64,000 nt of DNA from an uncultured Alphaproteobacteria bacterium (GCA_944393245.1 CALXZM010000003.1:14151-78150), one strand, 5' to 3'. Positions 23,193-40,648 are shown, counted from the first letter of the stretch. A program made the numbers and translations. Notes: generated by a model not told the origin, from the sequence alone.

Positions 23193-23194
23193 AA

Positions 23195-23225
23195 ATCCTG
23201 CACAGGTTGCAGGATTTTTATATTT
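23195..23225. terminator. Bidirectional intrinsic terminator (ATCCTGCA-CAGGT-TGCAGGAT + T-run)
   Basis: 8-bp perfect stem with A5 upstream and T5 downstream. Separates the SNase-like gene (+) from plsC (-). Confidence 0.6.
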
Positions 23226-23228
23226 TTA

Positions 23229-23936
23229 TTATGCGCTGTGGCGATTGATTGCCGCCCCAATTTCATCCAATGATGCGGTGCATGGTAACATTGGTTCAAA
23301 CCACAGGTGGGCCGTGCCAGAATGCATTTTACCATGCTTTGGCCAATATTTACCTGAATCAGTACCAACGGGCAATATCGGCAGTTTTAATTCATGTGCC
23401 AGAAATAATAATCCGCGCTTTATTTTTACCGGATGGCCGGGTTTTGTACGTGTACCTTCGGGAAATATTATCAGGTTTTGGCCGTCCATTATTTTTTTCG
23501 CAACTGCGTGGGTTAATTTTTTCATGTTGGTGGCACCACGTGCGCGATTTACCGGTTGCAGACCCATCCGCCAGAATGCCCAACCGTATACAGGAATCCA
23601 TAATAATTCGCGCTTTATTATGAAAAAGAAATTAGGTACATGAACGGTTAATATGGCAACTTCTAAGATAGACATGTGTTTTGCAGCAATTATGGATTTG
23701 CCGTCAAATCTGATGTTGCCGTTACGCGCAACTGGAATACCGTTTTCTTCGACCGGCGGATAGTGGATTTCATATTTTATGCCCGCTATGTAATGTGACA
23801 GACCCAATACGCCCATGGCACATACGCGAATTAAAAAACGTATTAAGCGTTTTGATATTAGTCCAATTAATAATATCGGCGACCATAAAATAAAATATGT
23901 GTATAATACTACCTTGAAAATAATAGTTCTTAACAT
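23229..23936 (-). CDS. plsC: 1-acyl-sn-glycerol-3-phosphate acyltransferase family protein
   Basis: N-terminal TM helix. Acyltransferase blocks AAKHMSILE (HX4E/D-type) and IFPEGTRT. Confidence 0.7.
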   Translation of the reverse strand: MLRTIIFKVVLYTYFILWSPILLIGLISKRLIRFLIRVCAMGVLGLSHYIAGIKYEIHYPPVEENGIPVARNGNIRFDGKSIIAAKHMSILEVAILTVHVPNFFFIIKRELLWIPVYGWAFWRMGLQPVNRARGATNMKKLTHAVAKKIMDGQNLIIFPEGTRTKPGHPVKIKRGLLFLAHELKLPILPVGTDSGKYWPKHGKMHSGTAHLWFEPMLPCTASLDEIGAAINRHSA

Positions 23937-23959
23937 GCTGTTTTTTTCCTTTTTTAAAA

Positions 23960-24469
23960 TTAACCTTCTTTGATTCCAAACAAAGTTGCGATGTATTTTA
24001 TATATTCAATGGTCCATCTTTCAAGTCTTTTCGTAACGGGCATGTCTGTTAGTGGTACGGGACAGGCAACAATTTCTGAATATGGTAATTCGTGTTCTAT
24101 TAGGTATTTTGCACGGTTCATGTGATCTTCGGTTGTGATGACGACAATTCTGTCCAGACCAGTGCGTTGTGCAATTTCCTTTATCGCCAATGCGTTTTGA
24201 TATGTGGATTTTGAATCTGATTCAATTGTAACGCGGCGGGCCATTTCGTATGAACCATTTGTACCAGCGCCAATTATATATAAATCTGTGCCGGGGTGTT
24301 TGCGCAATTGACGCATGGCAAATGGAATTCGGCGCATGTCACCTGTTAAAACAAATATGGTGTCGTCCGGCAAAATTGTTGCGCATTTACGCGGTGCCAT
24401 CGATTTAAATACCATTCCGCCAATTACAAAACACGTTATTATCAATAAAGATGGGGTTAATAATTTCAT
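23960..24469 (-). CDS. DUF218 (YdcF/SanA/ElyC-family) protein
   Basis: N-terminal TM. The VLTGD..R and IIGAGTNG..E..R pattern matches the YdcF/ElyC periplasmic domain. Confidence 0.55.
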   Translation of the reverse strand: MKLLTPSLLIITCFVIGGMVFKSMAPRKCATILPDDTIFVLTGDMRRIPFAMRQLRKHPGTDLYIIGAGTNGSYEMARRVTIESDSKSTYQNALAIKEIAQRTGLDRIVVITTEDHMNRAKYLIEHELPYSEIVACPVPLTDMPVTKRLERWTIEYIKYIATLFGIKEG

Positions 24470-25311
24470 TAATCATTCTTTAAAATACTGATTGTGGTAC
24501 GACGTGTAATCCATATTGCAAAAATTATTATTGCAATCGGCAATAAAAACAGCGCAAACCATCCCCAGCCAGATATTCCCAACATGGCCATTAATCCAAC
24601 GCGGGCACTGTGTGCCGCGCCCAATATCAGCATCAATACCGGGGCCGCAACCACGAATCCCGCACCGCCGGCAACAATACATATTTTGGCAATAATTATT
24701 TGCATTTGACGGGCAACGTATGCATCTGTTGCGCCGATTTGATTCAATATTTCCAGTTCACGTCTGTGCAGTAATGCGGTGTTGCGGGCAATGTATGAAA
24801 TACACAAACCAATCGCCCCCAGGGTCAGCAATAACACAAACGATGAAATTAAAATCATTTTCCACCCGGCGGATGTTGAACTTTTTAATGCCTGGGCATG
24901 GGTTAGAAAGCGTGCACTGGTCCCGATTTGCTGTTTTACGGATTCTAAATCATCGGTTGAATTAAATTGTAATTCATACATTTTTGGCAGATAGTTTTCC
25001 AATGCGTCACCACCGCCAGACAGCCATGGACGCAGCAAATCATGCATTTGTTCGGTTGTTATTTCCGTTACGGATTCCATTTTGTCTGAATTTTTATCGA
25101 TTATCTGTTTTACGGAATCGATGTTTTTAGGATTCATAACCTGTATCGTGGCAGTTAAATCCCATTGGGCATTCCAACGTACAACGCCGGTGCCAATTGC
25201 CAAAACTATGCCGAATGCCAACACCGCTAAAAATGTTAACAGTGCCATAATTGCCGTCATAAATACGGATTGATCGCGAACCAATGAAAATACAATCGGT
25301 TTTTTTGTCAT
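24469..25311 (-). CDS. ftsX: Cell-division ABC transporter permease FtsX-like
   Basis: 280 aa. TM1, a ~100-aa periplasmic loop, then three C-terminal TMs. Immediately downstream of an FtsE-like ATPase, start adjacent to its stop. Confidence 0.7.
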   Translation of the reverse strand: MTKKPIVFSLVRDQSVFMTAIMALLTFLAVLAFGIVLAIGTGVVRWNAQWDLTATIQVMNPKNIDSVKQIIDKNSDKMESVTEITTEQMHDLLRPWLSGGGDALENYLPKMYELQFNSTDDLESVKQQIGTSARFLTHAQALKSSTSAGWKMILISSFVLLLTLGAIGLCISYIARNTALLHRRELEILNQIGATDAYVARQMQIIIAKICIVAGGAGFVVAAPVLMLILGAAHSARVGLMAMLGISGWGWFALFLLPIAIIIFAIWITRRTTISILKND

Positions 25312-26109
25312 TTATGCATTTCCAATATCTTCGAATTGTTTGGATAATTCCGTGAAGTAGTTTTGTGGCTTGGGTCCCTTCCATATTTTTTTTGTTGCAT
25401 CGGATGGCGCAGTTTTTTGTGTTGTTGTGTTATTAATAAAACTTACCCGATGGTTTTCAACATGTATTACTGGGAATTTGTATGTTTCCATCAGTTTGGT
25501 ACTGTGTGTTGCCAAAATTATTGTTGTGCCGAATGTCTTATTCATTTGCACAAACAATTCCATCAGACGTGATGCGTTTTCATCGTCCAGATTACCCGTC
25601 GGTTCGTCGGCCAATAAAATTGCAGGCTGTATAATAATCGCGCGTGCGACGGATACACGCTGTTGTTGGCCGCCGGATAGTGTTTTTGGATTTGCGTCCG
25701 CATATTTGGCCAGACCAACCCATTCTAAAACCTTTATAACTAATTTTTTTATTTTTGATTCAGATAACCCGCGTACGCGCAGTGGCAACGCAACATTATC
25801 AAATACTGACATGTGCGATAGCAGGGAATATTCCTGAAACACGATGGCCATTTTATGGCGCAATTTTGCGATTTCGTCGCGGGTCATATCGTTTGTTATG
25901 CGTCCGAATAATTTTATTTGCCCGCGACATGGTTTATGTAATTGGTAAATTAATCGCAGTAATGTTGTTTTACCTGCGCCCGATGCACCGGACAGAAAAT
26001 AAAACGCGCCCGCACTGATGTTAAATGACACGTCGGACAGGACTTCGCGTGCATTATCGTCATAGCGCGCGCCAACGTTTGCAAAAGATATTGCGGTGTT
26101 GTCTGACAT
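25312..26109 (-). CDS. ftsE: Cell-division ABC transporter ATP-binding protein FtsE-like (with ~40-aa C-terminal extension)
   Basis: Walker [10 protein letters not shown], signature [15 protein letters not shown], Walker [14 protein letters not shown]-loop ATHS. Confidence 0.8.
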
Positions 26110-26196
26110 ATTAAAAATAATATTAAAAAAAGATTATACGGTCAAGGCATACATAAAAATAAAAATGCGCATACTGCACATTTTTATTTAAATTTA

Positions 26197-26604
26197 TTAT
26201 TCGTTCACTTCAACCGTTTTTGTTGTGGAATTACGGTTCAGTGCCCATACTTCTTCGCCCGTGCCAGGATATTGTGGGCGTTCTTTGCCGTATGATATTG
26301 TTTTTATTCTTTCTGGTTCAATGCCGTCGGCAATTAAAACATGTGCTGCATTACCCGCACGCAATGCCCCCAGTGCCAGATTGTATTCCGTGGAACCACG
26401 TTCGTCACAGTGACCTTCTAGTACGACATTAACATTTGGATTTGTTTTCATATATAATGATTGTTGTTCCAAATTTTCACGTGATTCATCCGTAATAACA
26501 GCAGAATCAAATGCAAAGAAAACTTTGTCGTCATTTATATCGGACGGCACACCACTGCACGCCGCCAACCCCAGCATAACAAAGCATAAAGAAACTTTTT
26601 TCAT
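26197..26604 (-). CDS. pal: Peptidoglycan-associated lipoprotein (OmpA-like domain)
   Basis: Lipobox MLGLAA|C, and OmpA-like C-terminal domain (NPNVNVVLEGHCDERGSTEYNLALGALRA). Confidence 0.8.
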   Translation of the reverse strand: MKKVSLCFVMLGLAACSGVPSDINDDKVFFAFDSAVITDESRENLEQQSLYMKTNPNVNVVLEGHCDERGSTEYNLALGALRAGNAAHVLIADGIEPERIKTISYGKERPQYPGTGEEVWALNRNSTTKTVEVNE

Positions 26605-26711
26605 TGTTTATTCCATCCTTGTTGCAACAGCAATTTTAATTACATATTAAGAATTTAGCAAATTTTATAAAAAGTTGTCAATATGTGATTTTCCACTTTT
26701 TTTACATGGGG

Positions 26712-26726
26712 CGTTTATGGTATAAT
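26712..26726 (+). promoter_or_regulatory. Extended -10 promoter element TGGTATAAT upstream of the outer-membrane protein gene
   Basis: TGnTATAAT at 26718-26726, 28 nt before the start codon. RBS AAGGAAGGA follows. Confidence 0.4.
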
Positions 26727-26753
26727 GGCATTAACATAAAAAGGAAGGAAAAT

Positions 26754-27470
26754 ATGAAAAGATTGGTTTCTTTGGCTGTTTTGTGCGGTTTGACTGTACC
26801 TGCATTTGCCGCGCCCAGTTATTTGACGCGTGATGGTAATGGCGGATACGTCGTTACATATGATTACACGGACAAGGCGAAAACCGGATGGTATGTTGGT
26901 GGGCGTGCCGAATTGGGATTCTGGAACTGGGAAAACAAGTACAGTGTGGACAGTGATTTGGCTGCGGACGAGGCGTTTAATAGCGATAAGTATTCGTTTG
27001 AACCCGCATTTGGTGGCAGTATATTTGGTGGAAAACGCTTTGCGTATTTCTGGCGCGCTGAATTGGAGGCCGGATATCTGGGCTATTTCAAGGATAAAGA
27101 TGCGGCCGCAGAATTTACTATGCAGATTCCGTATGTAATGCTGAACGGATATTATGATTTTACAAACGGTTTGTATCTGGGGGCAGGTGTTGGACTTGCG
27201 ATGCCAATAACGACAATAGATATGGTTTGGGCCGATGGTTCTGATCGTACTGAATACGGTGTTGCACCGATGGCCGGTGTAATGTTGGGATATTCATATA
27301 AATTGGATTATAATCTGGTGTTGGATATTCGTTATCGTTTGGCTGGCATGACCGGAATTGATCAACGTATAAATAATTTGACGACTGGGACAACCAATCA
27401 TTGGTTCCAAAATGACATTGATTTTATCCTGGATAATTCAATATCAATTGGTATCAGATATGAATTTTAA
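26754..27470 (+). CDS. Outer-membrane beta-barrel protein (OmpA-like/Omp25-type small porin family)
   Basis: Signal peptide MKRLVSLAVLCGLTVPAFA, alternating amphipathic beta strands, and a C-terminal aromatic residue (...GIRYEF). Confidence 0.7.
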   Translation: MKRLVSLAVLCGLTVPAFAAPSYLTRDGNGGYVVTYDYTDKAKTGWYVGGRAELGFWNWENKYSVDSDLAADEAFNSDKYSFEPAFGGSIFGGKRFAYFWRAELEAGYLGYFKDKDAAAEFTMQIPYVMLNGYYDFTNGLYLGAGVGLAMPITTIDMVWADGSDRTEYGVAPMAGVMLGYSYKLDYNLVLDIRYRLAGMTGIDQRINNLTTGTTNHWFQNDIDFILDNSISIGIRYEF

Positions 27471-27482
27471 CACAAAATGCTG

Positions 27483-27512
27483 TTGACCCGATTCGTGTAA
27501 TTGTGATATTAT
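27483..27512 (+). promoter_or_regulatory. Candidate sigma70 promoter (TTGACC-N18-TATTAT) for the repeat-protein gene array
   Basis: -35 TTGACC at 27483-27488, -10 TATTAT at 27507-27512, 20 nt upstream of the ATG at 27533. Confidence 0.35.
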
Positions 27513-27532
27513 TGTATAGGTAGAGAGAATTG

Positions 27533-30280
27533 ATGAAAAACGATCTGAAAATTTCGACACTGACAATTATTTGCGTCTTGTGTACGGCGGTATCTGGTGC
27601 ATATGGTGCATCGTCGGTTCGTTCGTTTGGTGGCAGTGGAACGTATGCCAGTGCATCTGACGCGGCGGCGGCCAATACCAGTTCGACAACTTCTGTTCGT
27701 GGTGGGTCTGTGCGTGTAAATCCGGGATCTGGTGTTTCGGGTTCAAGCACGACTATCGATGCCGGTACAACAACAAATGGCCGTGTTGCGACAACACCGC
27801 GTTTGTCAATTGGGCATTATCTGGGTGGCGGAACGTCAATTAGTGGTGGCAGTTCACTGCGTCCGCAAACGCCGGGATCTTCGTCTGGTGGTTCTTCGTC
27901 CGGTGGTGATGGTGGGTTGGATCCAGATGTTGCGGCGGGACTGCGTCAACAGGTTGATCAATTACAGCGTGATGTCGAAGATTTGCGTAATGCTGATGAT
28001 AATATAAATGACCAGTTGTTGGATAAACAGGATGCTTTAATTCCTGGTGATGATGGTTATATCATTATAGATGATGCTACGAACGAAATCTTTGTTGATG
28101 TCGATGCGTTGCAGGGTGCGTTGGAAACCGTTGCGGGCAAAGATGGGCGTGAAGTTGAATTGGGTTCCAATGATACGCATTTGTTGTGGCGTTATGTCGG
28201 TGAAAGTGGTTGGCATGATTTGATTGCGATTGCTGATATTACCGGTCCCCAGGGCCCCCAGGGTGAAAAGGGTGAAAAGGGTGATCCGGGTGATGCGGCC
28301 AATCTGGATGCTTATTCAACAACTGAACAAATGAATCAGGCGATTGGTAATGCGATTGCCGCGCTGGCGGATGTTTATGCGACCAAGGCAGAATTGGCCA
28401 ATTATGCAACGTCTGATGATTTATCGCGTGGTTTGGCGGCCAAGGCAAATGCAGCAGATGTTTACACCAAGGCAGAGGTTTATAACAAGACCGAAGTTGA
28501 TGACAAGGTTGCTGATATTGTTGCCGGTGATATGGACGGGGCATTGGCCAATAAAGCCGATAAAACGTATGTAGATACACAACTGGCGACCAAGGCCGAT
28601 AAAACAGAATTGGCAAATTATGCCACCACGGAATCTGTTACTGCGCTGGATTCCGAAATGGACGAAGTGAACGCCACTGCGACCGAGGCGGCATTAGGTG
28701 CCGCACAGGCGTTGAGTGGCCTGACCGGCAAAGAAGATACATCAAATAAGACACAAACGCTGACAAACAGTGCAACACAGTATCCGTCTGGTGCGGCGGT
28801 AACGACGGCGTTGGAACAAAAGGCTGATAAGTCTGAATTAGAAAATTACGTCACGTCAGATGAATTGGCAGGCAAGGCGGATCAAAGCGCGTTGGATAAT
28901 TTGACTGGACGTGTTTCCGCGAACGAAGCGGGTATATCTGAATTAAATACCACGATGGGGTCGGGTGAATTGACCACGTCTGACAAAACGGTTTTGGGCG
29001 CAATCAATGAATTGAAATCCAAAACGGACGGTATGGCGACCGACGGTAATTTTGAAGAAATGAATAGCAAGATTACCGAAATGGAAGGCAAACTGGATGG
29101 CAAGCAGGATGTTGCCAATATGGCCCAGACCGTGACCGACGATGAAACAAAATATCCGTCGTCTGCGGCGGTTTATGGCGAATTGGAAACCAAGGCAAAT
29201 GCGTCCGATTTGGCGAACTATGCAACCACTGAAACCGTGAACCAGATAACAGAAAATGTCACCAATGTTACGCAAACGGTAACGCAGTTGGGTGATACAA
29301 TTAATAATGCTGAAACGGGACTGAAAAAACAGGTCGAAGATGCCGTTACAGCTGCGAATACCGCCAAAGAGGCGGCCGATGCGGCGACATCTGCGGTTGC
29401 GGGCAAGCAAGATGCATTGGGATTCACCCCGGAAAATGTTGCGAACAAGAGTTCAACTGTTGTTGATGATGAATCAAAATATCCATCATCTGCGGCGGTT
29501 TATGGCGAATTGGAAACCAAGGCAAATGTTTCCGATTTGGCGAACTATGCAACAACTGAAACCGTGAACCAGATTGAACAAAATGTGACCAACGTCACGC
29601 AAAAGGTTAATGAAATCACTAATCCGGATACTGGATTGGCATCCCAGGTTACAAATATCACAAATGTAATTGGCGATGCGGATTCCGGTCTGGTCAAGGA
29701 TGTTGCCGATGCGGCGGCGGCGGCTGATGCGGCACAACAAACCGCAACAGAGGCTAAAAACACCGCTGATGCGGCGCAAACAACTGCTGACGAGGCAAAG
29801 GCCGGTCTGGATGCCAAGGAAGACAAGTCCAACAAGGCCACGTCTATTACGGGGGAAAACCAATCGTCTGCGACGGTGTATCCGTCGGTTGGGGCGATTA
29901 CCCAATGGACGAATGATCGCATAAATGAATTATCGACCGAGGGCCTGCCCGTGAATCCGGATAATATTGGTGCGGGTGCGATTACCACAGAAAAAATAGC
30001 AGATAATGCCGTTACAGAAGATAAATTGAGTGACGAATTAAATACTGAAATTGATGGCAAGGCAAATACGGCCGATTTGGGGGCGTTGGCGACCAAGGAT
30101 CAGATTACAAATGCGGATGTTGCGGATGACGCGGCAATCGCGAAATCAAAGCTGGCATCGGATGTTCAGGCGGCTTTGGACAAGGCTGCTGATGCTGTAA
30201 GTATGGCGGGTGCGTCTGAAAACAGCGTACTGGGTACCGACGACGAAGGTAATCCGGTCTGGTATGAAATAGCAATGTAA
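27533..30280 (+). CDS. Large secreted repetitive fibre-like protein (paralog 1) with collagen-like triplet segment and tail-fibre-like repeat modules
   Basis: Signal peptide, Ser/Gly/Thr-rich low-complexity N-terminal region, THLLWRYVGESGWHDLIAIADITGPQGPQGEKGEKGDPGD (collagen-like G-X-Y preceded by a W..Y.G...W..L motif), and many ELANYATTE / KYPSSAAVYGELETKA / AITTEKIADNAVTEDKL repeats. The C-terminal module YPSVGAITQWTN...LPVNPDNIG is shared with paralog 2. Confidence 0.7.
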   Translation: MKNDLKISTLTIICVLCTAVSGAYGASSVRSFGGSGTYASASDAAAANTSSTTSVRGGSVRVNPGSGVSGSSTTIDAGTTTNGRVATTPRLSIGHYLGGGTSISGGSSLRPQTPGSSSGGSSSGGDGGLDPDVAAGLRQQVDQLQRDVEDLRNADDNINDQLLDKQDALIPGDDGYIIIDDATNEIFVDVDALQGALETVAGKDGREVELGSNDTHLLWRYVGESGWHDLIAIADITGPQGPQGEKGEKGDPGDAANLDAYSTTEQMNQAIGNAIAALADVYATKAELANYATSDDLSRGLAAKANAADVYTKAEVYNKTEVDDKVADIVAGDMDGALANKADKTYVDTQLATKADKTELANYATTESVTALDSEMDEVNATATEAALGAAQALSGLTGKEDTSNKTQTLTNSATQYPSGAAVTTALEQKADKSELENYVTSDELAGKADQSALDNLTGRVSANEAGISELNTTMGSGELTTSDKTVLGAINELKSKTDGMATDGNFEEMNSKITEMEGKLDGKQDVANMAQTVTDDETKYPSSAAVYGELETKANASDLANYATTETVNQITENVTNVTQTVTQLGDTINNAETGLKKQVEDAVTAANTAKEAADAATSAVAGKQDALGFTPENVANKSSTVVDDESKYPSSAAVYGELETKANVSDLANYATTETVNQIEQNVTNVTQKVNEITNPDTGLASQVTNITNVIGDADSGLVKDVADAAAAADAAQQTATEAKNTADAAQTTADEAKAGLDAKEDKSNKATSITGENQSSATVYPSVGAITQWTNDRINELSTEGLPVNPDNIGAGAITTEKIADNAVTEDKLSDELNTEIDGKANTADLGALATKDQITNADVADDAAIAKSKLASDVQAALDKAADAVSMAGASENSVLGTDDEGNPVWYEIAM

Positions 30281-30294
30281 GGGGAATTTGAAAA

Positions 30295-32133
30295 ATGAAA
30301 AAACAAAATATTGTATTTTCTGGATTTATGGCGGCGATACTGTTCAGTGCCGGTGCGGCCAACGCTGCGACCCAAATTGCCAGCAAGCAGTACGTTGATA
30401 ATCGTGAAACGTCAATCCTGCAAACGGTCAGCAATACATATGAAACCAAGGAAAATGTTACAAACCTGACTGAACAGGTAACCCAGTTGGATGATACAAT
30501 CAATAATGAAGATACTGGTCTGGCGGCCAAGGTTGACGATGCTGTCGCTGCCGCGGCCGCAGCGAAACAAACGGCTGATACCGCCAAATCAACTGCAACC
30601 GGCGCACAAAGCGCGGTAGAGGCATTGGGGGCAACCGTTGGTAATGCTGAATCTGGTTTGGTCAAAGATGTAAATGATTTGCAAACAACTGTTGGTCAGT
30701 TGGATACAGAAATGGATTCTAAATTGGATTCTGCAACCGCTGCATCAACATATGAAGTTATATCAAACAAGGCGGCTGAAATCAACGAAGGTAATCAAAC
30801 ATCGCCAACAGCATATCCGTCAGTGGGCGCAATCGTTCAATGGACTAATAAAAAGATTGCGGACTTGTCAGATACTGGATTGCCAGTTAACCCCGGTAAT
30901 ATCAATGATGGAACTATTGCTGGCAGTAAATTGGAAAATGGCGCGGTCACAACTGATAAAATCGCCGATGATGCGGTGACATCTGACAAAATCGCCGATG
31001 ATGCCGTTGGTTCGGGCCAGATTGCAGACGGTGCGGTTGGTACTGATGATATTGCCGATGGTGCCGTGACATCCGATAAATTGGATGGAACATTGGCGGG
31101 ACAAATTGCCGATATTTCTGGCAAGCAGGACATTGCAATGGGTGTCGGTCACGAAAATCATATCGTGACAACTGATGCGTCCGGTAATATTACATCCGCC
31201 GCGACAATCGGCCAGGACAAGGTTACTGGTTTGACCACGGCATTGGCGGGCAAGGCCAGCACAGACGATATTCCGACCGCGGTTTCGGAACTGACAAACG
31301 ACAGCGGTTATTTGACAAATGCCGATATGACCGGCTATGCCAAAACAACTGATTTGGATGCCAAACAGAACAAAAATGTTGGCAGTGAAAATAATGGTAA
31401 AATTTTGACCGTGGGCGCGGATGGTAATATCACAACATCCGCCACAATTGCCCAGTCAAAGGTCGAAGGATTGGAAACCGCATTGGCGGGTAAATTGGAA
31501 TCTGATGATTTGACGGGCTATGTAACCAGTGAATCGTTAACAACCACGTTGGACGATTATGCCACAACAACGGATTTGGGCGCGAAACAAGATAAATTAA
31601 CCGCAACTGGTGCCGCAAATCAACCCGTATATGTTAATGAACAGGGCGTTGTAACGGCCGGTAACACAATTCCGACGGTAACAACAAATATTACCACGGG
31701 CATCACAGATGCGGCCCAGGCGGGCGCAGTGGCCGATAAATTGGCACAAAAGGAAGATGCCGCGAACAAGGTCAAGACGATTAGTGATGGCAATAAATCG
31801 TCTGAAACACTGTTCCCGACAATCGGTGCGATTACCACATGGACTGACCAACAAATTCAAAAATTGTCTGATACTGGTATACCCGTTAATCCGGACAATA
31901 TTGGCAATAGTGCGATAACGACTGATAAAATTGCCAATGGTGCTGTTACAACAGAAAAATTGGCGGACGATTCCGTGACAGAAGACAAACTGAGCAATGA
32001 TGTCGTTGCATCTATTGATGCAAAGTTACCGGCGCCGGATGCGGACTGTGTTGCGGATTCAAATCTGTGCGTATTATCTGTGACACCAGGGGGTGATTTG
32101 GCGTGGGTTGCGGTAACACAACCGGCGGAATAA
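30295..32133 (+). CDS. Secreted repetitive fibre-like protein (paralog 2)
   Basis: Signal peptide ending ANAATQIASKQYVD. Repeats (K/R)IADDAVTSDKIADDAVGSGQIADGAVGTDDIADGAVTSDKL. Two copies of the YPS(V/T)IGAI.(Q/T)WT...LSDTG(L/I)PVNP.NI module. Trp-containing C-terminus (LAWVAVTQPAE). 14-bp gap from paralog 1. Confidence 0.7.
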   Translation: MKKQNIVFSGFMAAILFSAGAANAATQIASKQYVDNRETSILQTVSNTYETKENVTNLTEQVTQLDDTINNEDTGLAAKVDDAVAAAAAAKQTADTAKSTATGAQSAVEALGATVGNAESGLVKDVNDLQTTVGQLDTEMDSKLDSATAASTYEVISNKAAEINEGNQTSPTAYPSVGAIVQWTNKKIADLSDTGLPVNPGNINDGTIAGSKLENGAVTTDKIADDAVTSDKIADDAVGSGQIADGAVGTDDIADGAVTSDKLDGTLAGQIADISGKQDIAMGVGHENHIVTTDASGNITSAATIGQDKVTGLTTALAGKASTDDIPTAVSELTNDSGYLTNADMTGYAKTTDLDAKQNKNVGSENNGKILTVGADGNITTSATIAQSKVEGLETALAGKLESDDLTGYVTSESLTTTLDDYATTTDLGAKQDKLTATGAANQPVYVNEQGVVTAGNTIPTVTTNITTGITDAAQAGAVADKLAQKEDAANKVKTISDGNKSSETLFPTIGAITTWTDQQIQKLSDTGIPVNPDNIGNSAITTDKIANGAVTTEKLADDSVTEDKLSNDVVASIDAKLPAPDADCVADSNLCVLSVTPGGDLAWVAVTQPAE

Positions 32134-32190
32134 CCGAAACAAAGGATTAAAAAAACAACAAATAAAAAAAGAAAGAAAGGAAAGAAAAAA

Positions 32191-33816
32191 ATGAAAAAAT
32201 TAACAGCAGGTATTTTTGCAACATTATTGGCCGTTGTTTCGGTCGATGGGGCATACGCCGCAATCGCATCCAAGGGATACGTTGATGAAAAGGTTGGAAC
32301 AGTTACAACTGCACTTGGAAATAAAGCTGATAAAACAGAATTGGGTAATTATGCAACAACAGCAGCCTTGACTTCCGGTTTGGCGGGTAAGTTAGATACT
32401 GAGGGTACGGCTGCAAAAGCTACAGCAGATGCTTCTGGCAATGTAATCACAACAACATATGCAACAAAAACAGAATTAAACGCAGCTGAAAAGATTGCCA
32501 ATCGTGTGACAACGGTTTCTGATGCTTCTGATGATACACATTATCCAACGGCAAAAGCGGTTTGGGACGTTGTTCAGGCCGAAACATCTGACATTGCGTC
32601 CAGTGGTGATTTGAGTGCGTTGACAACGCGTGTCGGTACATTGGAAAAAGCGTCTGCGACACATGCGACAAAGACAGAATTAACAGATGGTCTGGCCGAA
32701 AAATTGGATACTGCAACCGCGGCAACAACGTATGCAACCAAAACGGAATTGGCTGGAAAGCAAGATAAAATTGCCGGTGCACAGTTAGAGGCATTGAATT
32801 CAGGAATTACCGCGGACAAGGTAGAGGCATATGATGGTTATGCCGCACAGATTTCTGGCAAGTTAGACGCTGCGGGTACGGCTGCAAAAGCTACAGCAGA
32901 TGCTTCTGGCAATGTAATCACAACAACATATGCAACAAAAACAGAATTAGGTGCAAAAGCGAATACCGCTGATTTGGGTGCATTGGCAACAAAAGATACA
33001 GTAAGCGCAACTGAAATTGATGCAGATGCAGTTACAACAGAAAAAATCCTGGATGCTAATGTAACAAAAGCGAAATTGGCATCTGATATACAGACATCTT
33101 TGGGTAAAGCGGATTCTGCTTTACAGCAAGCTGATTTGGCGGATTATGCAAAGACTGCAGAGGTAGCAAGTACATATGAAACCAAAGAAAACGCAGCTTC
33201 AACATATGAAACAAAAGCAAATGCTTCTGCAACATATGAAACAAAAGCAAATGCTTCTGCAACATATGAAACAAAAGCAAATGCTTCTGCAACGTATGCA
33301 ACAAAAGAAGAAATTAAAGGTATGGCAACTGATGCAAACCTGGCACTGAAACAGGATAAAACAGATAATTCATTGGAAACAACAAGCAAGACAGTTGTTG
33401 GGGCTATCAATGAAGTAAAGACAACCGCTGACGGTGCAAGCACTGCTGCAAAAGCAGCACAAACTGCGGCTGATTCAAAATTGCCGACCGCCACATATAA
33501 CACCCAGGTTGGTACTGTTTCAGCAGAAAATATGGGAACAACGGCAAAAACGGTTGTGACCGCTATCAAGGAAGTAGCAGGTGAAGCGGAGGCTGCACAA
33601 TCTGCAGCGTCTGCGGCAGATTCTAAAGCTCAGGCAGCACAAAGTGCAGCAGAAGCCGCTGATTCTAAAGCTCAAGCAGCACAAACAACTGCTAATGCAG
33701 CTATCCCAAAAGTAAATGCGGAAGGTAGTGACGGTAAGTACGTTTTGACTGCAACGGCTGCAAATGGCGTTGCTACATACAAATGGGAACTTATCGAACG
33801 TGGGTCTGCTGAATAA
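32191..33816 (+). CDS. Secreted repetitive fibre-like protein (paralog 3)
   Basis: Signal peptide plus AAIASKGYVDEKV. Internal exact 75-bp duplication (DASGNVITTTYATKTEL module), 30-bp tandem repeats (TYETKANASA x4-5), C-terminus ...ATYKWELIERGSAE. Confidence 0.7.
   Translation: MKKLTAGIFATLLAVVSVDGAYAAIASKGYVDEKVGTVTTALGNKADKTELGNYATTAALTSGLAGKLDTEGTAAKATADASGNVITTTYATKTELNAAEKIANRVTTVSDASDDTHYPTAKAVWDVVQAETSDIASSGDLSALTTRVGTLEKASATHATKTELTDGLAEKLDTATAATTYATKTELAGKQDKIAGAQLEALNSGITADKVEAYDGYAAQISGKLDAAGTAAKATADASGNVITTTYATKTELGAKANTADLGALATKDTVSATEIDADAVTTEKILDANVTKAKLASDIQTSLGKADSALQQADLADYAKTAEVASTYETKENAASTYETKANASATYETKANASATYETKANASATYATKEEIKGMATDANLALKQDKTDNSLETTSKTVVGAINEVKTTADGASTAAKAAQTAADSKLPTATYNTQVGTVSAENMGTTAKTVVTAIKEVAGEAEAAQSAASAADSKAQAAQSAAEAADSKAQAAQTTANAAIPKVNAEGSDGKYVLTATAANGVATYKWELIERGSAE
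33172..33321 (+). repeat. 30-bp tandem repeat (about 5 units, 3 perfect) inside paralog 3, encoding TYETKANASA
   Basis: ACATATGAAACAAAAGCAAATGCTTCTGCA repeated head-to-tail. Flanking units are diverged by 3-6 substitutions. Confidence 0.85.
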
Positions 33817-33927
33817 TGATTTGTAAAAATGTGTGCGGTGTTAAATGTGCACCGCACACAGGTAAAAAAAACAGATTGCGATAAACGAACAGTGGAACGA
33901 AACAGATACTTTGGGTAGAATACGGAT

Positions 33928-34836
33928 ATGATAAAGTCAAAAGGCATTTTCGCAGTTTCATTTATAGCTATGATGGTGGCGGGTGGCGCATATGCAAATA
34001 TTGCGTCACAGGGCTATGTCGATCAGCAGATTGATACCAGACAGGTTGCCGGTGATTATGCGACGAACACCGCATTGGGGACTGTTCGTACAACCGCAAC
34101 AAATGCCCAATCCGCAGCCGCTGCGGCAAAAACCGCGGCAGATGACGCACAAGATGCGGCAGATGCCGCCGCCAGTGCTGCTGCCACTGCACAGCAAACC
34201 GCCAATGCCAAGGTTTCAACCGCACAGGGTAGTTCTGCCGCTAATAAGGCCGTAATTACAAATGCGTCTGGTAATATCACAACGGGGACAATTTCGTCGG
34301 CGATGATTACAGATGGCACGATAACCAACGCTGATATTTCGGCCAGTGCGGCGATTGCCCAATCAAAAATTTCTGGTTTAACGACTGCGTTGGCGGGCAA
34401 GGCAAATACTGCTGATGTTCCGACAAAAACAAGTGATTTAACAAACGACAGCGGGTTTATTACTGCCGAAGAATTGCCCGATGGATATACTTTGCCGGTG
34501 GCGACAGCAGACACTTTGGGTGGTGTGAAATCTGGTGGTGATATTACTGTGGCGACCAGTGGTGCCGTTACCGTGAACAGTGCAACCAAGGCCGACAGTG
34601 CAACAGCCGCCGCAAGTGCCACCAAGGCGACACAGGACGCGTCCGGGAATGTGATTACAACCACATATGCAACCAAGGCACAGTTGACTGCATTAGATAG
34701 TTCAACATCTGGTTCTGGTGCGGTTGTGACAGATGTTTCACAAACAGATGGCAAGGTTACTGTTACCAAGGGCAATGTTCAAATCCCTGTGGGCAGTGCA
34801 ACCGCAACAACATATGCGACCATTTGGGTTGAATAA
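33928..34836 (+). CDS. Secreted repetitive fibre-like protein (paralog 4, shortest)
   Basis: Signal peptide plus ANIASQGYVDQQI. Shares the DASGNVITTTYATKAQL module and the GLTTALAGKA(N/S)T.D(V/I)PT module with paralogs 2 and 3. Trp-containing C-terminus TYATIWVE. Confidence 0.7.
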   Translation: MIKSKGIFAVSFIAMMVAGGAYANIASQGYVDQQIDTRQVAGDYATNTALGTVRTTATNAQSAAAAAKTAADDAQDAADAAASAAATAQQTANAKVSTAQGSSAANKAVITNASGNITTGTISSAMITDGTITNADISASAAIAQSKISGLTTALAGKANTADVPTKTSDLTNDSGFITAEELPDGYTLPVATADTLGGVKSGGDITVATSGAVTVNSATKADSATAAASATKATQDASGNVITTTYATKAQLTALDSSTSGSGAVVTDVSQTDGKVTVTKGNVQIPVGSATATTYATIWVE

Positions 34837-34840
34837 TATT

Positions 34841-34866
34841 TCCCGCCATTGGCGGGATTTTTTGTT
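34841..34866 (+). terminator. Intrinsic terminator after the repeat-protein array (TCCCGCC-ATT-GGCGGGA + T7)
   Basis: Perfect 7-bp GC-rich stem followed by TTTTTTG. Confidence 0.7.
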
Positions 34867-35000
34867 TTTTACTAGTTTTTATAATCTTGATTTATCTATT
34901 ATTGCCAAACTGGGGCAGGTGTAGAAAATTTAATCTTGATTTATTCCAGTGTGTATTTTAGAATTTTTTGCGTGATTTGGCAATGCCGAATTACATTGAA

Positions 35001-35182
35001 CATCAGTGTTAGTAGACGGGTTTAGTCACCCGAATATAACGCAATAACTAACCGATATGTTCCCGACATAATCGTCGGGAAGTCGTTTGCTATACAACAG
35101 CCCACGTGGTAAAGGCAACGAATTCATCGTTATATTTGAATGACTAACTTCCCGACACCTGAACACTGATCAGGTGTTTTTT
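35001..35182 (+). other. Structured ~180-bp element: candidate cis-regulatory leader (attenuator/riboswitch-like) or MITE-like relic, ending in an intrinsic terminator 16 nt before the PAP2 gene
   Basis: 9-bp terminal inverted repeats ATCAGTGTT (35002-35010) and AACACTGAT (35162-35170). Internal hairpins (CGGGT..ACCCG, and TTCCCGAC-ATAATC-GTCGGGAA with a second TTCCCGAC copy at 35149). Terminator CACCTGA-ACACTGA-TCAGGTG + T6 at 35156-35182, partly overlapping the right inverted repeat so the two pairings are mutually exclusive. Confidence 0.3.
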
Positions 35183-35198
35183 AGTTTAGGGATGTGGG

Positions 35199-35759
35199 AT
35201 GTTGCGTTTTTTGTTTGTTGGGGTGCTGGGTATCACTATATCATTGTGCGCGGCGCCGTATGCGTGGGCCGGTGACGTTATTGCCAAAATAGGGGATTTT
35301 ATTTCTTTTAAGATTTTGCCGGTATATTCGTTTGGAACAACAATTTATAATTCTGATTGGGATACGTGGTACGATTATGATTGGAATGGATTAAAGCAGT
35401 TGATTGTTGTGAATATGGTCAAATCAACTGTTGTTGATGGTATAAAAGAAAATGTTTTTGAAATGCGCCCAAACGGCAGTGGGGGTGACAGTTTTCCGTC
35501 TGGGCATACTGCAAATGCGTTTGCTCAGGCAGCTTTTATTCATCGACGTTATGGTATAAAGCAAGCTATTGTGCCGTACGTGTTGGCCACTTTTGTCGGA
35601 TTTTCACGGGTGGAATCACGTATGCATTATACTCACGATGTTTTGGCAGGGGCGACAATCGGATTTTTATCGGCTTGGATTTTTGCAGACGAAAAAAAGT
35701 CCGTCGTTGTCAGTGCTGATACAAACAGTTTTGGGTTACGTTTTAATTTTGTGTTCTAG
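35199..35759 (+). CDS. PAP2-family (acid phosphatase / phosphatidylglycerophosphatase B-like) periplasmic phosphatase
   Basis: Signal peptide. PAP2 signature blocks KENVFEMRP (KX6RP), PSGHT, and SRVESRMHYTHD (SRX5HX3D). Confidence 0.75.
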   Translation: MLRFLFVGVLGITISLCAAPYAWAGDVIAKIGDFISFKILPVYSFGTTIYNSDWDTWYDYDWNGLKQLIVVNMVKSTVVDGIKENVFEMRPNGSGGDSFPSGHTANAFAQAAFIHRRYGIKQAIVPYVLATFVGFSRVESRMHYTHDVLAGATIGFLSAWIFADEKKSVVVSADTNSFGLRFNFVF

Positions 35760-35762
35760 TTA

Positions 35763-36338
35763 TTAAAACAGTGATATTAAGCAAACGCCCAGGCCTGCTG
35801 CAATTATTGCGCCAATTGTCAATGGCCAAAAATATTTTTTTACTATCGCGTTGGCGCGTTCCTGGAAAAAATACAGCAATGTTGCGATGATTGCAAAGCG
35901 ACCCGTGCGGAATATTGCCGATACAGCAATAAATATCCACAGTGGGTATCCGATAAATCCCAACCATATCGCCAGTAATTTATACGGTATCGGTGTTACC
36001 GCCGTCAGTACGATTATCAAAATTCCGTATTTGCTGAACATCGGCTTTATCGCCGTTTCTATTAATTCGGGGTTGGTAAATGTGTTTATTATCCACTGGC
36101 CCAATGAATCCCACAGCCATGCACCAATCAGATATGCAATTGCACCACCGACAATCGAACCCAATGATGCCGCGATTGTAATCGGAACAGCACGTTTTTT
36201 GTTCGCAATAATGGGGGGCGTCATGAATACCTCTGGCGGGACGAAAAGGAATATCGATTCGCATACTGTTAAAATAAATACTATCCATGCATAGGCGCGA
36301 CTTTCTGATTTGCTTAAAATATATTCTGCGAATTTCAT
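35763..36338 (-). CDS. DedA/YqaA-superfamily inner-membrane protein
   Basis: 191 aa, 4-5 TM helices. Motif FLFVPPEVFMTPPII resembles the YqaA/DedA re-entrant loop consensus. Confidence 0.45.
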   Translation of the reverse strand: MKFAEYILSKSESRAYAWIVFILTVCESIFLFVPPEVFMTPPIIANKKRAVPITIAASLGSIVGGAIAYLIGAWLWDSLGQWIINTFTNPELIETAIKPMFSKYGILIIVLTAVTPIPYKLLAIWLGFIGYPLWIFIAVSAIFRTGRFAIIATLLYFFQERANAIVKKYFWPLTIGAIIAAGLGVCLISLF

Positions 36339-36432
36339 AAGTATCCTTTACAATAGGCAAAAAAATTTACTTGATTGTAATTTATCATTTTATAATTTAC
36401 AATCAATATATAAGTTAGCATGGTAAGTAAAA

Positions 36433-36786
36433 ATGAACAGACAAAATAATAATTCTAATCGGGCACAACGTATCGCCAGCAAGGTGCAAACCTTGGTCGC
36501 AGAAATTCTGCGCGATGATTTTGGTGATGACAAGATTATTTCAGGTGTGTCCCTGGTCGGGGCGGTGGCACATGGTGGGTTGCAGTTTGTACGGCTGTTT
36601 TATTATTCGCATAATCCTGATATAAATGCAGTGCAGGACAGATTGAATAAAATTACGCGTACGGTGCGATATGAATTGGCGGCGCGTATGAATCAAAAGT
36701 ATGTGCCTGAAATCCGATTCGAATATGATGATACGTTGGATCGGGCGGAACGAATGGAAAAAATTTTTCAAAATCTGGATAAATAA
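36433..36786 (+). CDS. rbfA: Ribosome-binding factor A
   Basis: 117 aa. Pattern RAQRIASKVQTLVAEILRD...ISGVSLV...VPEIRFEYDDTLDRAERMEKIF typical of the RbfA KH-like fold. Directly upstream of lepA. Confidence 0.65.
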   Translation: MNRQNNNSNRAQRIASKVQTLVAEILRDDFGDDKIISGVSLVGAVAHGGLQFVRLFYYSHNPDINAVQDRLNKITRTVRYELAARMNQKYVPEIRFEYDDTLDRAERMEKIFQNLDK

Positions 36787-36884
36787 AAAATATCTGCTTT
36801 TAGGCGTATTTTATAGTTGCAGATGTTCTTATACTGGTGTATCATTGCCGCATAGATTTGTGATAATGTATCCCAGGATTTTTT

Positions 36885-38684
36885 ATGAAGCAGCAGAATA
36901 TCAGAAACTTTGCAATCGTTGCGCATATTGACCACGGAAAATCAACCCTGTCGGACAGGTTGATTGAATATACCGGCGGTTTGCAATCGCGCGAAATGAA
37001 GGCACAGGTTCTGGATTCTATGGATATTGAACGTGAACGCGGAATCACGATTAAGGCGCAAACCGTTCGTTTGAACTATACCGCCAAAGATGGCCAGGTT
37101 TATCAATTGAATTTAATGGATACGCCGGGGCACGTTGACTTTTCATATGAAGTGTCACGGTCGCTGGCCGCGTGCGAAGGTGCGCTGATTTTGGTTGATG
37201 CAACCCAGGGGGTTCAGGCACAGACATTGGCAAATGCTTATCTGGCGTTGGATAATGATTTGGAAATGTTGCCTGTGCTGAACAAAATTGATTTGCCGTC
37301 CAGTGATGTTGATGGAACGCGTGCACAAATTGCGGATGTTATCGGGCTGGATGCGGGGGATGCGTTGTGTGTGTCCGGCAAAACCGGTGCCGGTGTCCCA
37401 GAATTATTGGAAGAAATTGTTCAGCGTTTACCCGCACCGCGTGGAAATGAAAATGCGCCAGCGCGCGCGTTGTTGGTGGATTCTTGGTATGATTCGTATC
37501 TGGGGGTTGTGGTATTGGTGCGCGTGGTTGATGGACGATTGACGCGTGGCCAGAAAATCAGATTTATGGCAACTGGTGCAGAATATTTAATTGAAAAAAT
37601 TGGATATTTTACACCAAAAATGGTTGATGTCGATTCGTTGGAAACTGGTGAAATCGGATTTATTATCACAGGTATGAAAACCATTCATGATTGCAAGGTT
37701 GGTGATACAATCGTTGATGCGCGCAATGGTGTGAACTGTGAACCGTTACCGGGGTTTAAGCCGTCTGTGCCGGTGGTGTTTGCGTCTTTTTTCCCAGTAG
37801 AGTCTGATGATTATCCAGCGTTACGTGACGGGGCTGAAAAGTTGGCGTTGAATGATGCGTCATTTGTGTTTACGGTGGAAAAATCGTCGGCGTTGGGATT
37901 TGGATTGCGATGCGGTTTTTTGGGACTGCTGCATATGGAAATTATCAGTGAACGGTTGCGTCGCGAATTCAATTTAAATCTGATAAATACTGTACCCAGC
38001 GTATTGTACAAAGTGTATTTGCGTGACGGTTCTGTGATTGATTTGGAAAATCCGGCTGATATGCCCGATCCAACACGAATTGCATCGATAGAAGAACCAT
38101 GGGTTCGGGCGACAATTATGATGCCTGATAAATACATGGGGGGCATTATGTCGCTGTGTTCGGAACGGCGCGGGGTTCAGGAAAATATTTCATATGTCGG
38201 AAATCGTGCGGTACTGGTGTATCAATTGCCGTTGGCGGAAATAGTGTTTGATTTTTATGATCGTGTAAAATCGCTGTCGTCGGGGTATGCGTCGTTTGAC
38301 TATGTGGTGCAGGGATATCGTCCGTCTGATTTGGTAAAGGTTTCCATATTGGTGAACGATGAAAATGTGGAACCGTTGTCGTTTATGTGTCATCGCAGTT
38401 TTGCTGAAAAACGTGGACGTCAGATTGTTGAACGGTTAAAGGATTTAATCCCACGACATCAATTTAAAATTCCATTACAGGCCGCAATCGGGGGCAAAAT
38501 TATCGCGCGTGAAACAATTGCTGCATATCGCAAGGATGTTACCGCAAAATGCTATGGCGGGGACATTACACGTAAAAGAAAGTTATTAGAAAAGCAAAAA
38601 GAAGGAAAGAAAAGAATGCGTACCTTTGGCAATGTAGAAATTCCGCAATCGGCATTTATCAATGCGTTAAAGGTTGGAAATTAA
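36885..38684 (+). CDS. lepA: Translation elongation factor 4 (LepA)
   Basis: N-terminal G domain [29 protein letters not shown]. LepA-specific C-terminal domain. 599 aa. Confidence 0.9.
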
Positions 38685-38728
38685 TACAGATATGGTATGT
38701 ATACAATGATTAAACAAAAGGAAAACAA

Positions 38729-39106
38729 ATGTCAGTATGGACATATATAACCAAAACACCAAAGCATATAATTCGTGCCGATTGGGATGAATATAAGTAT
38801 TTGGGTAAATGTGTGAATAGTGCAAGAAAGAAATGCGATATTGCACGCGCTGGTTTAAACCAGGGGAATAATGGATGCGTGTATGTGCGCTTTTATGATG
38901 TACCGGATTTTGGACGCGATACTGATGGTGGCAGACGGGCTGAACGTGAAACATGCGATAATTTTCAATACTCGGTTCCGTGCCGGAATAAAGATTGCCC
39001 TTACTATGAAAAAAATGTTGAATATTTCAGTGCAATGCATTTGCACAGGGCATTGGCAAAACAACGCAAAATATTCTGGGTACAGAAATTTGCAAATTGC
39101 AGATAA
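38729..39106 (+). CDS. Small Cys-rich protein, paralog A (unknown; mobile-element-associated)
   Basis: 125 aa with 7 Cys including CRNKDC. Basic C-terminus. Shares motifs (W.DE.K...C....R..L; C-x4-C; YF.A....K....FW) with the next ORF. Confidence 0.45.
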   Translation: MSVWTYITKTPKHIIRADWDEYKYLGKCVNSARKKCDIARAGLNQGNNGCVYVRFYDVPDFGRDTDGGRRAERETCDNFQYSVPCRNKDCPYYEKNVEYFSAMHLHRALAKQRKIFWVQKFANCR

Positions 39107-39118
39107 ACGGGGGCCATT

Positions 39119-39493: not shown

Positions 39494-39513
39494 AATACAA
39501 TGGGGGACGGGAT

Positions 39514-40512: not shown

Positions 40513-40648
40513 GTGCGGTGTTAAACCAACAATATCAATTTTTGTTATCATTTGTTATAATTCCTTGACACCAGGGTTAGAAAATGATAGTTTTAAGTAA
40601 TGACGCCCGAAAGTGGGCCACAAATTTAACTGAAACAAAGGATAAAAA

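Follow-up and report, generated by a model that had tools for sequence, protein, structure and literature searches.

The window analysed here, a stretch of 64,000 nucleotides (nt) from an uncultured Alphaproteobacteria bacterium (GCA_944393245.1, CALXZM010000003.1:14151-78150), contains four consecutive fibre-like genes on its plus strand, F1 to F4 (27533-34836). Our most likely reading is that their products make up an exchangeable fibre coat or attachment organ on the cell surface, because they are exported, long and variable in length, because they are built of modules used outside cells, because their variation and exchange resemble those of exposed molecules, and because they are kept in every related locus that we recovered despite the metabolic losses of the lineage. 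Surface location, anchoring, adhesion and antigenic variation are what we infer for these proteins. The genes dnaA (112-1407), gyrB (3400-5379) and dnaN (12584-13702) mark the window as an origin-proximal part of the core chromosome of Candidatus Enterousia, a member of order Rs-D84 of the Alphaproteobacteria; the window also holds uvrC, tolB, ftsEX, pal, lepA, fusA, tuf, secY and ribosomal protein genes. Rs-D84 genomes are smaller than 1 Mb, without a tricarboxylic acid cycle, respiration, flagella and the usual transporters, and members of the order are thought to depend on partners (PMC12306168). Relatives were collected by a pattern scan with one genome per species, which gave 35 species-level loci; two more distant relatives were compared in addition. 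Nearly all of the 35 loci are named Candidatus Enterousia, uncultured Alphaproteobacteria or Rickettsiales.

F1 (27533-30280) encodes 915 amino acids (aa) from its ATG and 916 aa from a TTG at 27530; F2 (30295-32133), F3 (32191-33816) and F4 (33928-34836) encode 612, 541 and 302 aa, respectively. The original prediction of four consecutive same-strand genes of 916, 612, 541 and 302 aa agrees with the open reading frames (ORFs) and with the gene calls on a public 380-kb ENA metagenome scaffold that contains the window and in which F4 is found verbatim. A signal peptide had been proposed for each gene, and each N-terminus indeed reads as a basic n-region and a hydrophobic core followed by an A-x-A/G site. 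The signal peptides are encoded on the plus strand at 27533-27607 (F1), 30295-30369 (F2), 32191-32259 (F3) and 33928-33996 (F4), with cleavage predicted between AYG and A in F1, ANA and A in F2, AYA and A in F3, and AYA and N in F4. The Trp-containing motifs expected at the C-termini are present in all four translations: PVWYEI in F1, LAWVAV in F2, YKWELI in F3 and TIWVE in F4. Both the signal peptide and the C-terminal motif are specific to the array position and, for a given position, conserved across the order. The C-terminal consensus is ...NSVLGTDGEGNPVWYEIAM for position 1, C...S.LCVLSVT..GDLAWV.VT.P for position 2, C...NKCVL....G.Y.WEVI.R for position 3, DGTYTLTMKVVN..TYAWE.IGR for position 4 and VTKGNVQIPVGSATATTYATIWVE for the last position. 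The two conserved Cys residues in the C-termini of F2 and F3 fit an extracytoplasmic location. The position-specific signal peptides, for example NI(A/V)FSGFMAAIL and MKKLTAGIF, show an amino-acid conservation that is unusual for signal peptides. Third-position identity at the conserved 5′ ends is 0.49-0.57, compared with 0.51 in ftsE; the conservation is therefore at the protein level, and the idea that these ends function as nucleotide-level recombination anchors was rejected.

The mature parts of F2, F3 and F4 open with a common motif. A search of all six reading frames of the window for the pattern [IVL][ATV]S..[YF]V[DNT] gave exactly three matches, all at these N-termini and 0-3 residues past the predicted cleavage site: IASKQYVDNRE in F2, IASKGYVDEKV in F3 and IASQGYVDQQI in F4 (IASKQYVD, 30376-30399; IASKGYVD, 32263-32286; IASQGYVD, 34000-34023; plus strand). 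The proposal that an IAS(K/Q)xYVD motif follows every signal peptide holds for these three proteins but not for F1, which has an N-terminal sequence of its own in this place, ASSVRSFGG...VRGGSVRV...PRLSIGHYLGG.

All four proteins are rich in Ala, Thr, Asp and Lys. Their cores had been described as shuffled modules, and the modules in question, YATK/ELANYATTE, DASGNVITTTYATK, IxDxAVTxDK decapeptides and YPSVGAI..W, are present and repeated in the array; the mutual identity of 22-36% over long repeat-driven alignments is a similarity at the level of repeated modules only. F2 comprises a helical stalk, two YP(S/T)xGAI..W modules, decapeptide repeats IxDxAVTxDK (30931-31083, plus strand), modules of a hairpin plus a helix, and a C-terminal Cys-loop hairpin, CVADSNLCVLSVTPGGDLAWVAVT (32047-32118, plus strand). 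F3 has an Ala/Thr/Lys-rich stalk with eight motifs of the [ILVMFY]A[ST][KQRTE] type (including IASK, four times YATK, and LATK), two KADKxEL-type motifs and the C-terminal sequence GKYVLTATAANGVATYKWELI. An in-frame 30-nt tandem repeat of 4.5 copies encodes its ATYETKANAS units (33172-33307, plus strand; Tandem Repeats Finder, 92% matches, score 216). F4 contains the module TSDLTNDSGFIT (34429-34464, plus strand) and ends in VQIPVGSATATTYATIWVE. Near-identical DNA repeats, which had also been predicted, do exist, but none is shared between paralogs: all are intragenic, namely an internal repeat of 143 nt at 90% in F1, an internal duplicate of 93 nt at 96% in F3 and the F3 tandem repeat. DNA similarity between paralogs amounts to just 74-84% over 38-71 nt.

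F1 is laid out as a signal peptide, a disordered motif region, a coiled coil, a small beta domain, collagen-like triplets, a long alpha/beta coiled-coil stalk and the C-terminal sequence NSVLGTDDEGNPVWYEIAM. Residues 27-130 (27608-27919, plus strand) form a low-complexity Gly/Ser/Thr-rich region with order-wide invariant motifs. The motifs A-SSVR-LGG, VRGGSxRV and PRLSIGxYLGG are conserved in 32 species, and V30, R31, G34, R57, R91, L92, S93, G95 and Y97 are invariant among 40 homologues. In the AlphaFold2 model, residues 1-130 have a predicted local distance difference test score (pLDDT) below 50 and are predicted to be disordered. Conserved short motifs in such a disordered stretch suggest a docking function, and because of these motifs and the constant linkage to an outer membrane protein (OMP) gene described below, residues 27-130 are a candidate anchoring region. 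Further downstream, the LLWRYVGESGWHDLIAI beta domain (28181-28231, plus strand) precedes a collagen-like Gly-X-Y run, GPQGPQGEKGEKGDPGD (28244-28294, plus strand, residues 239-255). By its triplet pattern F1 can be classed as collagen-like, with a run that is short here (about five uninterrupted triplets) and longer in F1 orthologues. Several proteins that a query with the F1 N-terminus matched, in most cases along just a short portion of that query, have Pfam Collagen (PF01391) precomputed, and PHROG 19976 matches residues 205-252 of F1. F1 also carries eight [ILVMFY]A[ST][KQRTE]-type motifs of the YATK/LATK kind and six of the KADKxEL type.

Neither Pfam nor NCBIfam contains a family that matches F1-F4 above its cut-off, and the PHROG scan likewise gave none above the curated cut-off. 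The homologues of F2 (more than 1000) and of the F1 N-terminus (146) are named only 'hypothetical protein', none of the 120 listed homologues has a precomputed Pfam domain, and no published description of this protein family was found in the literature searched. This is in keeping with the earlier view that the locus is not a recognised characterised system. The fibre-like nature of the proteins, also proposed before, is apparent at the level of motifs. Beta-layers arise in trimeric coiled coils from hexad or nonad insertions of the type [aliphatic]-A-T-K-[polar]-[DE] or KADKAD (Hartmann et al. 2016, PMC4786415). They can cap the extreme N-terminus of a coiled coil, and the neck of the streptococcal prophage fibre HylP1, HAATKAYVDKAI, is a beta-to-coiled-coil transition (PMC4786415). 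IASKGYVDEKV and the many YATK, LATK and KADK motifs fit the published beta-layer consensus, and by their hexad and nonad motifs F1 and F3 can be classed as alpha/beta coiled coils. Where weak matches to solved structures were obtained, nearly all of the structures were trimeric rods, among them reovirus sigma-1, NadA, a trimeric-autotransporter fragment, the head fibres of crAss-like phages and phi29, and GCN4-Tcar0761 beta-layer constructs, including 7oaa. A family profile matched the trimeric head decoration protein (orf16) of Legionella phage LME-1 with E=2e-6 over ~75 residues. The AlphaFold2 model of F2, based on 72 homologues, shows helices at residues 25-152 with a pLDDT of 70-92, hairpin-plus-helix modules and a C-terminal hairpin (591-596/602-607). 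Given the identity of motifs with solved structures and the collagen-like run, F1-F4 are probably parallel homotrimeric alpha/beta coiled-coil fibres.

The array is far more variable than its surroundings. In comparisons with at least 30 species, identity of the flanking proteins is 74-91% along the whole chain, whereas F1-F3 show a median amino-acid identity of 45-54% with only 31-54% of their length alignable, and F4 reaches 75% over the 42% of its length that aligns. The length of the protein encoded at one array position ranges from ~220 to ~990 aa, and the alignments show whole modules gained or lost between conserved ends. A locus of the same species (L037) is 98.5% identical to the window over 21000-32300 and 98.9% over 35758-40491, with a replaced stretch that reaches from ~110 nt into F3 through the end of the PAP2 region. 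In this stretch F3 and F4 retain just 70-89% identity, in patches, and the place of the PAP2 gene is taken by a GIY-YIG gene and two ORFs of unknown function (15792-17090 in L037). In a locus of another lineage (L038) the backbone is 74-84% identical to the window, and identity is mostly 93-100% (86-100% in bins of 300 nt) over 26824-31000 and 34024-36100. The first of these blocks extends from inside the OMP gene through F1 to the first half of F2; the middle of F2 is then at 55-66%, the F2/F3 junction at 96% and the body of F3 at 50-71%, and from F4 through the PAP2 and VTT genes identity is again 93-100%. Synonymous divergence (dS) from L038 is 0.11 in F1, 0.16 in F2, 0.14 in F4 and 0.02 in the PAP2 gene, which lies inside a recently exchanged block, compared with 1.2-1.7 in ftsE, ftsX, pal and DUF218. 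The OMP gene, partly inside the exchanged block, has an intermediate dS of 0.52. In a third locus (L007) the flanks are 76-79% identical, yet 593 nt of F3 are identical at 96%. A breakpoint at ~32300 recurs in four comparisons.

Variation thus occurs mainly by homologous segment exchange between strains and species, together with gain and loss of repeats: the gene ends are kept, and the middles are swapped, lengthened or shortened by recombination with the alleles of other strains or species. The original prediction of a recombining, variable family is supported as far as recombination and variation go, both being strong, but the exchange is allelic, at orthologous positions, and not between the paralogs of one genome. 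Shuffling among paralogs is disfavoured because their DNA identity is low and the window holds no silent cassettes or inverted repeats. Indeed, no further family members or fragments were found in the 64-kb window outside 27400-34900, which together with the low inter-paralog DNA identity led us to reject intragenomic cassette conversion for this window, and no meaningful inverted repeats were found in 26000-41000. The recombinase gene nearby had suggested a shufflon or other invertible element; this was rejected in view of the missing inverted repeats, the same-strand orientation of the fibre genes and the synteny of the recombinase in all species.

In all loci long enough to show it, the array is preceded on its left by the minus-strand order PlsC-DUF218-FtsX-FtsE-Pal. 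The plus-strand order is OMP barrel, F1-type gene and more fibre genes, then VTT/DedA, RbfA, LepA and a tyrosine recombinase. Every related locus that we recovered contains the array; between 2 and 8 fibre genes can be seen in each of the 35, all on the same strand in every locus compared and always with the F1-type gene first. In 31 of 32 species loci the F1-type gene is immediately preceded by a small OMP barrel gene. In the window this conserved first gene of the unit (26754-27470, plus strand) encodes 238 aa with a signal peptide and a C-terminal ...GIRYEF, and its match to Pfam OMP_b-brl (E=2.2e-6, 28.4 bits) is just under the 28.7 cut-off. The two more distant relatives have the OMP gene, the F1-type gene and two Pfam-negative ORFs together beside ftsEX, in a different downstream context. 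One of the loci (L026, CAVGNU010000018.1) was deposited as Bacteroides fragilis and shows the complete Rs-D84 synteny and a fibre array; the label is probably due to mis-binning.

This context bears directly on the relation of the array to phages. The family shares building blocks with the tail-fibre, minor-tail and head-fibre proteins of phages, as judged from sequence comparison. When F2 was compared by tblastn with 50,697 phage records, the matches were confined to residues ~174-300, which hold the YP..GAI..W module and the decapeptides, at 41-53% identity and 11-17% coverage; the matched proteins, from very different phages, bear annotations as tail-fibre, minor-tail or head components. 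PHROG tail-fibre families match parts of F1, F2 and F4 (PHROG 892, E=2e-14), and IMG/VR yielded one weak locus. An exhaustive HMMER search with F4 gave 2490 cluster representatives. About 55 of the best 150 of these 2490 belong to the same family, having a signal peptide, an IAS..YVD motif and a C-terminal ...IWVE; most of the others in the best 150 of 2490 have no such N-terminus, and the LTNDSGF module is common to them, often in many copies. The idea that the genes were domesticated from a tail-fibre gene therefore finds support in short shared modules, but a descent of whole genes does not follow from a best coverage of 11-17% of F2. We consider it highly improbable that F1-F4 are the tail fibres of a degraded prophage, a tailocin or a gene-transfer agent, as the PHROG matches, the annotations of the tblastn hits and a phage-type tyrosine recombinase gene (39514-40512) located 4.7 kb downstream of the array might suggest. 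That recombinase is itself syntenic across the order, the phage similarity covers just a small part of F2, and all four proteins have signal peptides, which are absent from virion fibres and from the phage-like matches of F4. Moreover, no capsid, tail, baseplate or terminase genes were recognised around the array in the 35 species-level loci and further relatives, where the housekeeping context is constant. The earlier statement that no phage genes flank the array extends, with the housekeeping synteny, to these loci and to further contigs: the orthologous loci lie outside prophages and, as described above, are not stable.

Taken together, the data can be arranged in the following model. A conserved chromosomal operon of Rs-D84 would encode several Sec-exported, homotrimeric rod-like fibres, each chain being cleaved at its A-x-A/G site. 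The IAS(K/Q)xYVD motif at the mature start of F2-F4 would act as an N-capping beta-layer that opens a parallel three-stranded coiled coil, and the stalk would be an alpha/beta coiled coil in which YATKxEL, LATKxD and KADKxEL beta-layers alternate with heptad segments. Beta modules of phage-fibre type (YPSxGAI..W, IxDxAVTxDK decapeptides, DASGNIT hairpins, LTNDSGF) would be interspersed, and a short Trp-containing beta-hairpin at the chain end would probably register or cap the trimer. F1 would differ by its conserved disordered region with Arg/Gly motifs and by its collagen-like segment. The likeliest anchoring parts would be the F1 N-terminal region and the co-conserved upstream OMP barrel, and on the cell surface the fibres would provide a partner-dependent bacterium with a variable coat or an organ of attachment. 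A more specific version, which we put forward tentatively and regard as rather unlikely, is a novel mode of trimeric fibre display on a diderm cell, a split and inverse form of the trimeric-autotransporter-like kind: the conserved, disordered N-terminus of F1 with its Arg/Gly motifs would be held or threaded by the separately encoded OMP barrel, to which the other fibres might also dock, and the exchangeable coat would attach to the partner cells on which the bacterium depends.

Several observations weigh against a surface fibre organ. Scans with Pfam and NCBIfam recognised no outer-membrane translocator (YadA-type anchor, usher, TpsB or type I signal). The AlphaFold2 monomer models are of low confidence, with a mean pLDDT of 53.7 for F1 1-270 and 56.6 for full F2, and a Foldseek search with these models gave no PDB match below E=0.9. 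The F2 decapeptide repeats were modelled poorly, which is expected when what would be an intertwined trimer is modelled as a monomer. The common C-terminal pattern P..G.Y.L...G...W..I resembles the foldon of T4 fibritin, but neither a profile of 20 C-termini compared with the PDB, among whose entries numerous fusions to the foldon are to be expected, nor hhalign against the T4 fibritin C-terminus gave a match; the likeness is one of pattern. A globular tip domain, as is usual in receptor-binding fibres, is absent, and the C-termini are conserved instead of variable, which makes specific adhesion less certain than a coat function. The ratio of nonsynonymous to synonymous divergence (dN/dS) in the alignable parts is 0.08-0.26, above that of most flanking genes and indicative of purifying selection; point-mutational positive selection is therefore not shown. 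Finally, the conserved signal peptides could be retained as membrane anchors and not cleaved.

Retained anchors are one form of an alternative in which F1-F4 are envelope-internal coiled coils, either signal-anchored in the inner membrane or acting as Lpp-like tethers of the outer membrane, and never exposed. The position of the locus among tolB, pal and ftsEX would suit such a role, as would the order-wide amino-acid conservation of the signal peptides, a weak match of F1 to the Pfam Alanine_zipper (Lpp) family and the finding of a Sec signal with no known outer-membrane export device recognised. A periplasmic ruler should, however, be constrained in length, whereas one and the same position encodes ~220-990 aa, and coiled coils of 300-900 aa are far longer than a normal periplasm. 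Since, in addition, the canonical A-x-A sites are conserved, the modules are common to extracellular phage fibres, and mosaic replacement with allele exchange between species is typical of exposed molecules, we think that this alternative is quite unlikely.

Equally, we see little probability that the proteins are released, to form an extracellular matrix or to act on other cells, instead of being held by the cell. No enzymatic or toxin domain was found in more than 1000 homologues, Pfam being empty for all 120 listed; the order-wide conserved, position-specific ends suggest docking to conserved components of the cell, and the linkage to the OMP gene is conserved. It is true that F2-F4 have no recognisable anchor, their mature chains opening with a coiled-coil cap, and that the C-terminal motifs are short hairpins, as might be expected of released proteins.

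A sub-variant of the surface fibre organ would be a composite fibre in which the products of the array are joined end to end or onto a base of F1, as in gp34-gp37 of T4. The fixed gene order with F1 always first, the presence of a candidate anchor region in F1 alone and the position-specific N- and C-terminal motifs, which could be junctions, are compatible with this arrangement. We nevertheless doubt it strongly, as the visible copy number varies from 2 to 8 among species, the N-termini of F2-F4 are near-identical caps and not distinct junction domains, and no gp35-like monomeric hinge protein was recognised.

Of the known systems, the mosaic adhesive trimer (MAT) fibres of Bdellovibrio bacteriovorus and the trimeric autotransporter adhesins come closest to a surface fibre organ of this kind. 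Consider first the MATs. They are chromosomal, signal-peptide-bearing, trimeric and phage-tail-fibre-like, with many mosaic paralogs; the signal peptide is followed in all of them by a beta-rich domain of ~130 aa, the globular tips at the C-terminus (S74 or other) vary, and their anchoring partner in the outer membrane is likewise unidentified (PMC10769870). F1-F4 resemble MATs as chromosomal, signal-peptide-bearing, phage-fibre-like mosaic paralogs of a host thought to rely on other cells. In contrast to MATs, they lack the ~130-aa beta-rich domain: F2-F4 open with the IAS..YVD cap and a helix, and residues 1-130 of F1 are predicted to be disordered. Their C-termini are short conserved hairpins with no Peptidase_S74 or other tip domain in Pfam or NCBIfam, their genes form a single-operon array downstream of an OMP gene, and no sequence match was obtained from F1-F4 to MAT structures in the PDB. 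With the trimeric autotransporter adhesins (YadA, NadA, SadA, UspA), F1-F4 appear to share Sec export, a predicted coiled-coil stalk, beta-layer and neck motifs, and a modular, repetitive and recombining make-up. They differ in that neither F1-F4 nor the 120 listed homologues contain a YadA_anchor, the four-strand C-terminal element from which a 12-strand barrel is formed in these adhesins, the ends being hairpin motifs of 20-25 residues, and in that they have no head domains and are linked instead to a separate small OMP gene. Phage and viral fibres such as T4 fibritin, HylP1, reovirus sigma-1, LME-1's head decoration protein and tail-fibre repeat proteins are segmented trimeric rods, as F1-F4 probably are; the neck of HylP1 shares an ATKAYVD-type motif, and LME-1 orf16 and many annotated tail fibres share the decapeptide/YP..A(V/I) module. 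Unlike these, F1-F4 are cellular, signal-peptide-bearing and encoded in a housekeeping locus, with only short modules in common. Streptococcal M proteins, Anaplasma Msp2 and Wolbachia wsp combine a conserved signal peptide and conserved ends with a mosaic centre and exchange alleles across lineages. F1-F4 are similar to them in their conserved ends and mosaic middle; the folds and the anchoring differ, and the window holds no silent donor cassettes. F1-F4 are probably a new, uncharacterised family within a known kind, that of trimeric fibre families made from phage-like modules, with an unusual genomic organisation.

With regard to expression, a promoter-like site, TTGACC-18-TATTAT with a TG extension (27483-27512, plus strand; 10/12 in the consensus scan), lies between the OMP gene and F1. 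The gaps F1-F2, F2-F3 and F3-F4 measure 14, 57 and 111 bp, and a terminator-like hairpin, TCCCGCCATTGGCGGGA, followed by a T-run closes the unit (hairpin 34841-34857, through 34867, plus strand). Its stem of 7 bp, with six G-C pairs, begins 5 bp past the F4 stop and is the clearest in the scanned region, by consensus only. The promoter-like sites in that region, consensus matches only, number 29 against a mean of 22.5 in shuffled sequence. Co-transcription of F1-F4, predicted earlier from the short gaps and the candidate at 27483, is plausible because of the promoter-like site, these gaps and the single terminator. In the F3-F4 gap, 33817-33873 contains an imperfect inverted repeat of 24 nt; the A-run that comes after this hairpin on the plus strand shows that it is not a typical terminator, and it may be a processing or attenuation site. 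GC skew is positive across the whole window, and the fibre operon lies on the positive-skew strand, ~26 kb from dnaA.

Both neighbours named in the original prediction, the OMP gene upstream (26754-27470) and the PAP2 phosphatase gene downstream (35199-35759, plus strand; Pfam PAP2, E=5.7e-17), are in place. The latter is an accessory and not a fibre gene, weakly similar to the lipid A 1-phosphatase LpxE (NCBIfam LpxE, E=5.8e-11, below cut-off), and it is variably present, having been detected in only three species loci. Between lepA and the tyrosine recombinase are tandem small paralogous ORFs of ~115-260 aa, which in the window (38729-39106 and 39119-39493) are Cys-rich, the first copy having no Pfam match; depending on the species there are one to about four copies (L022, ~18506-20133; L024, ~19057-21059). 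Two Cys-rich signal-peptide proteins of 436 and 399 aa without a Pfam family are encoded at 1551-2861 and 17758-18957 and may be further surface or secreted proteins. Tandem, highly similar copies of a gene for a predicted 152-aa lipoprotein (lipobox ...MGGC) are found at 16677-17135 and 17164-17622, and 45565-46341 encodes a second small outer-membrane-type protein, of 258 aa, with a signal peptide, a ...KFGIEF end and no match in Pfam or NCBIfam.

Candidatus Enterousia and its relatives of Rs-D84 belong to the widespread, uncultured bacteria of the human, poultry and livestock gut, and we know of nothing that has been established about how they contact partner organisms. The fibre operon accounts for ~0.8% of a genome of this size, and no other stretch of its neighbourhood is as variable or as often exchanged. 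This share of the genome, its presence in all related loci that we recovered, its proximity to the origin and its variability make it the best current candidate for the contact or coat organ of Rs-D84. It offers a handle for strain typing, for studies of the pressure exerted by immunoglobulin A (IgA) or phages, and for enrichment or visualisation with antibodies. After Bdellovibrio, Rs-D84 would be a second bacterial lineage whose chromosomal fibre families are assembled from modules of phage fibres.

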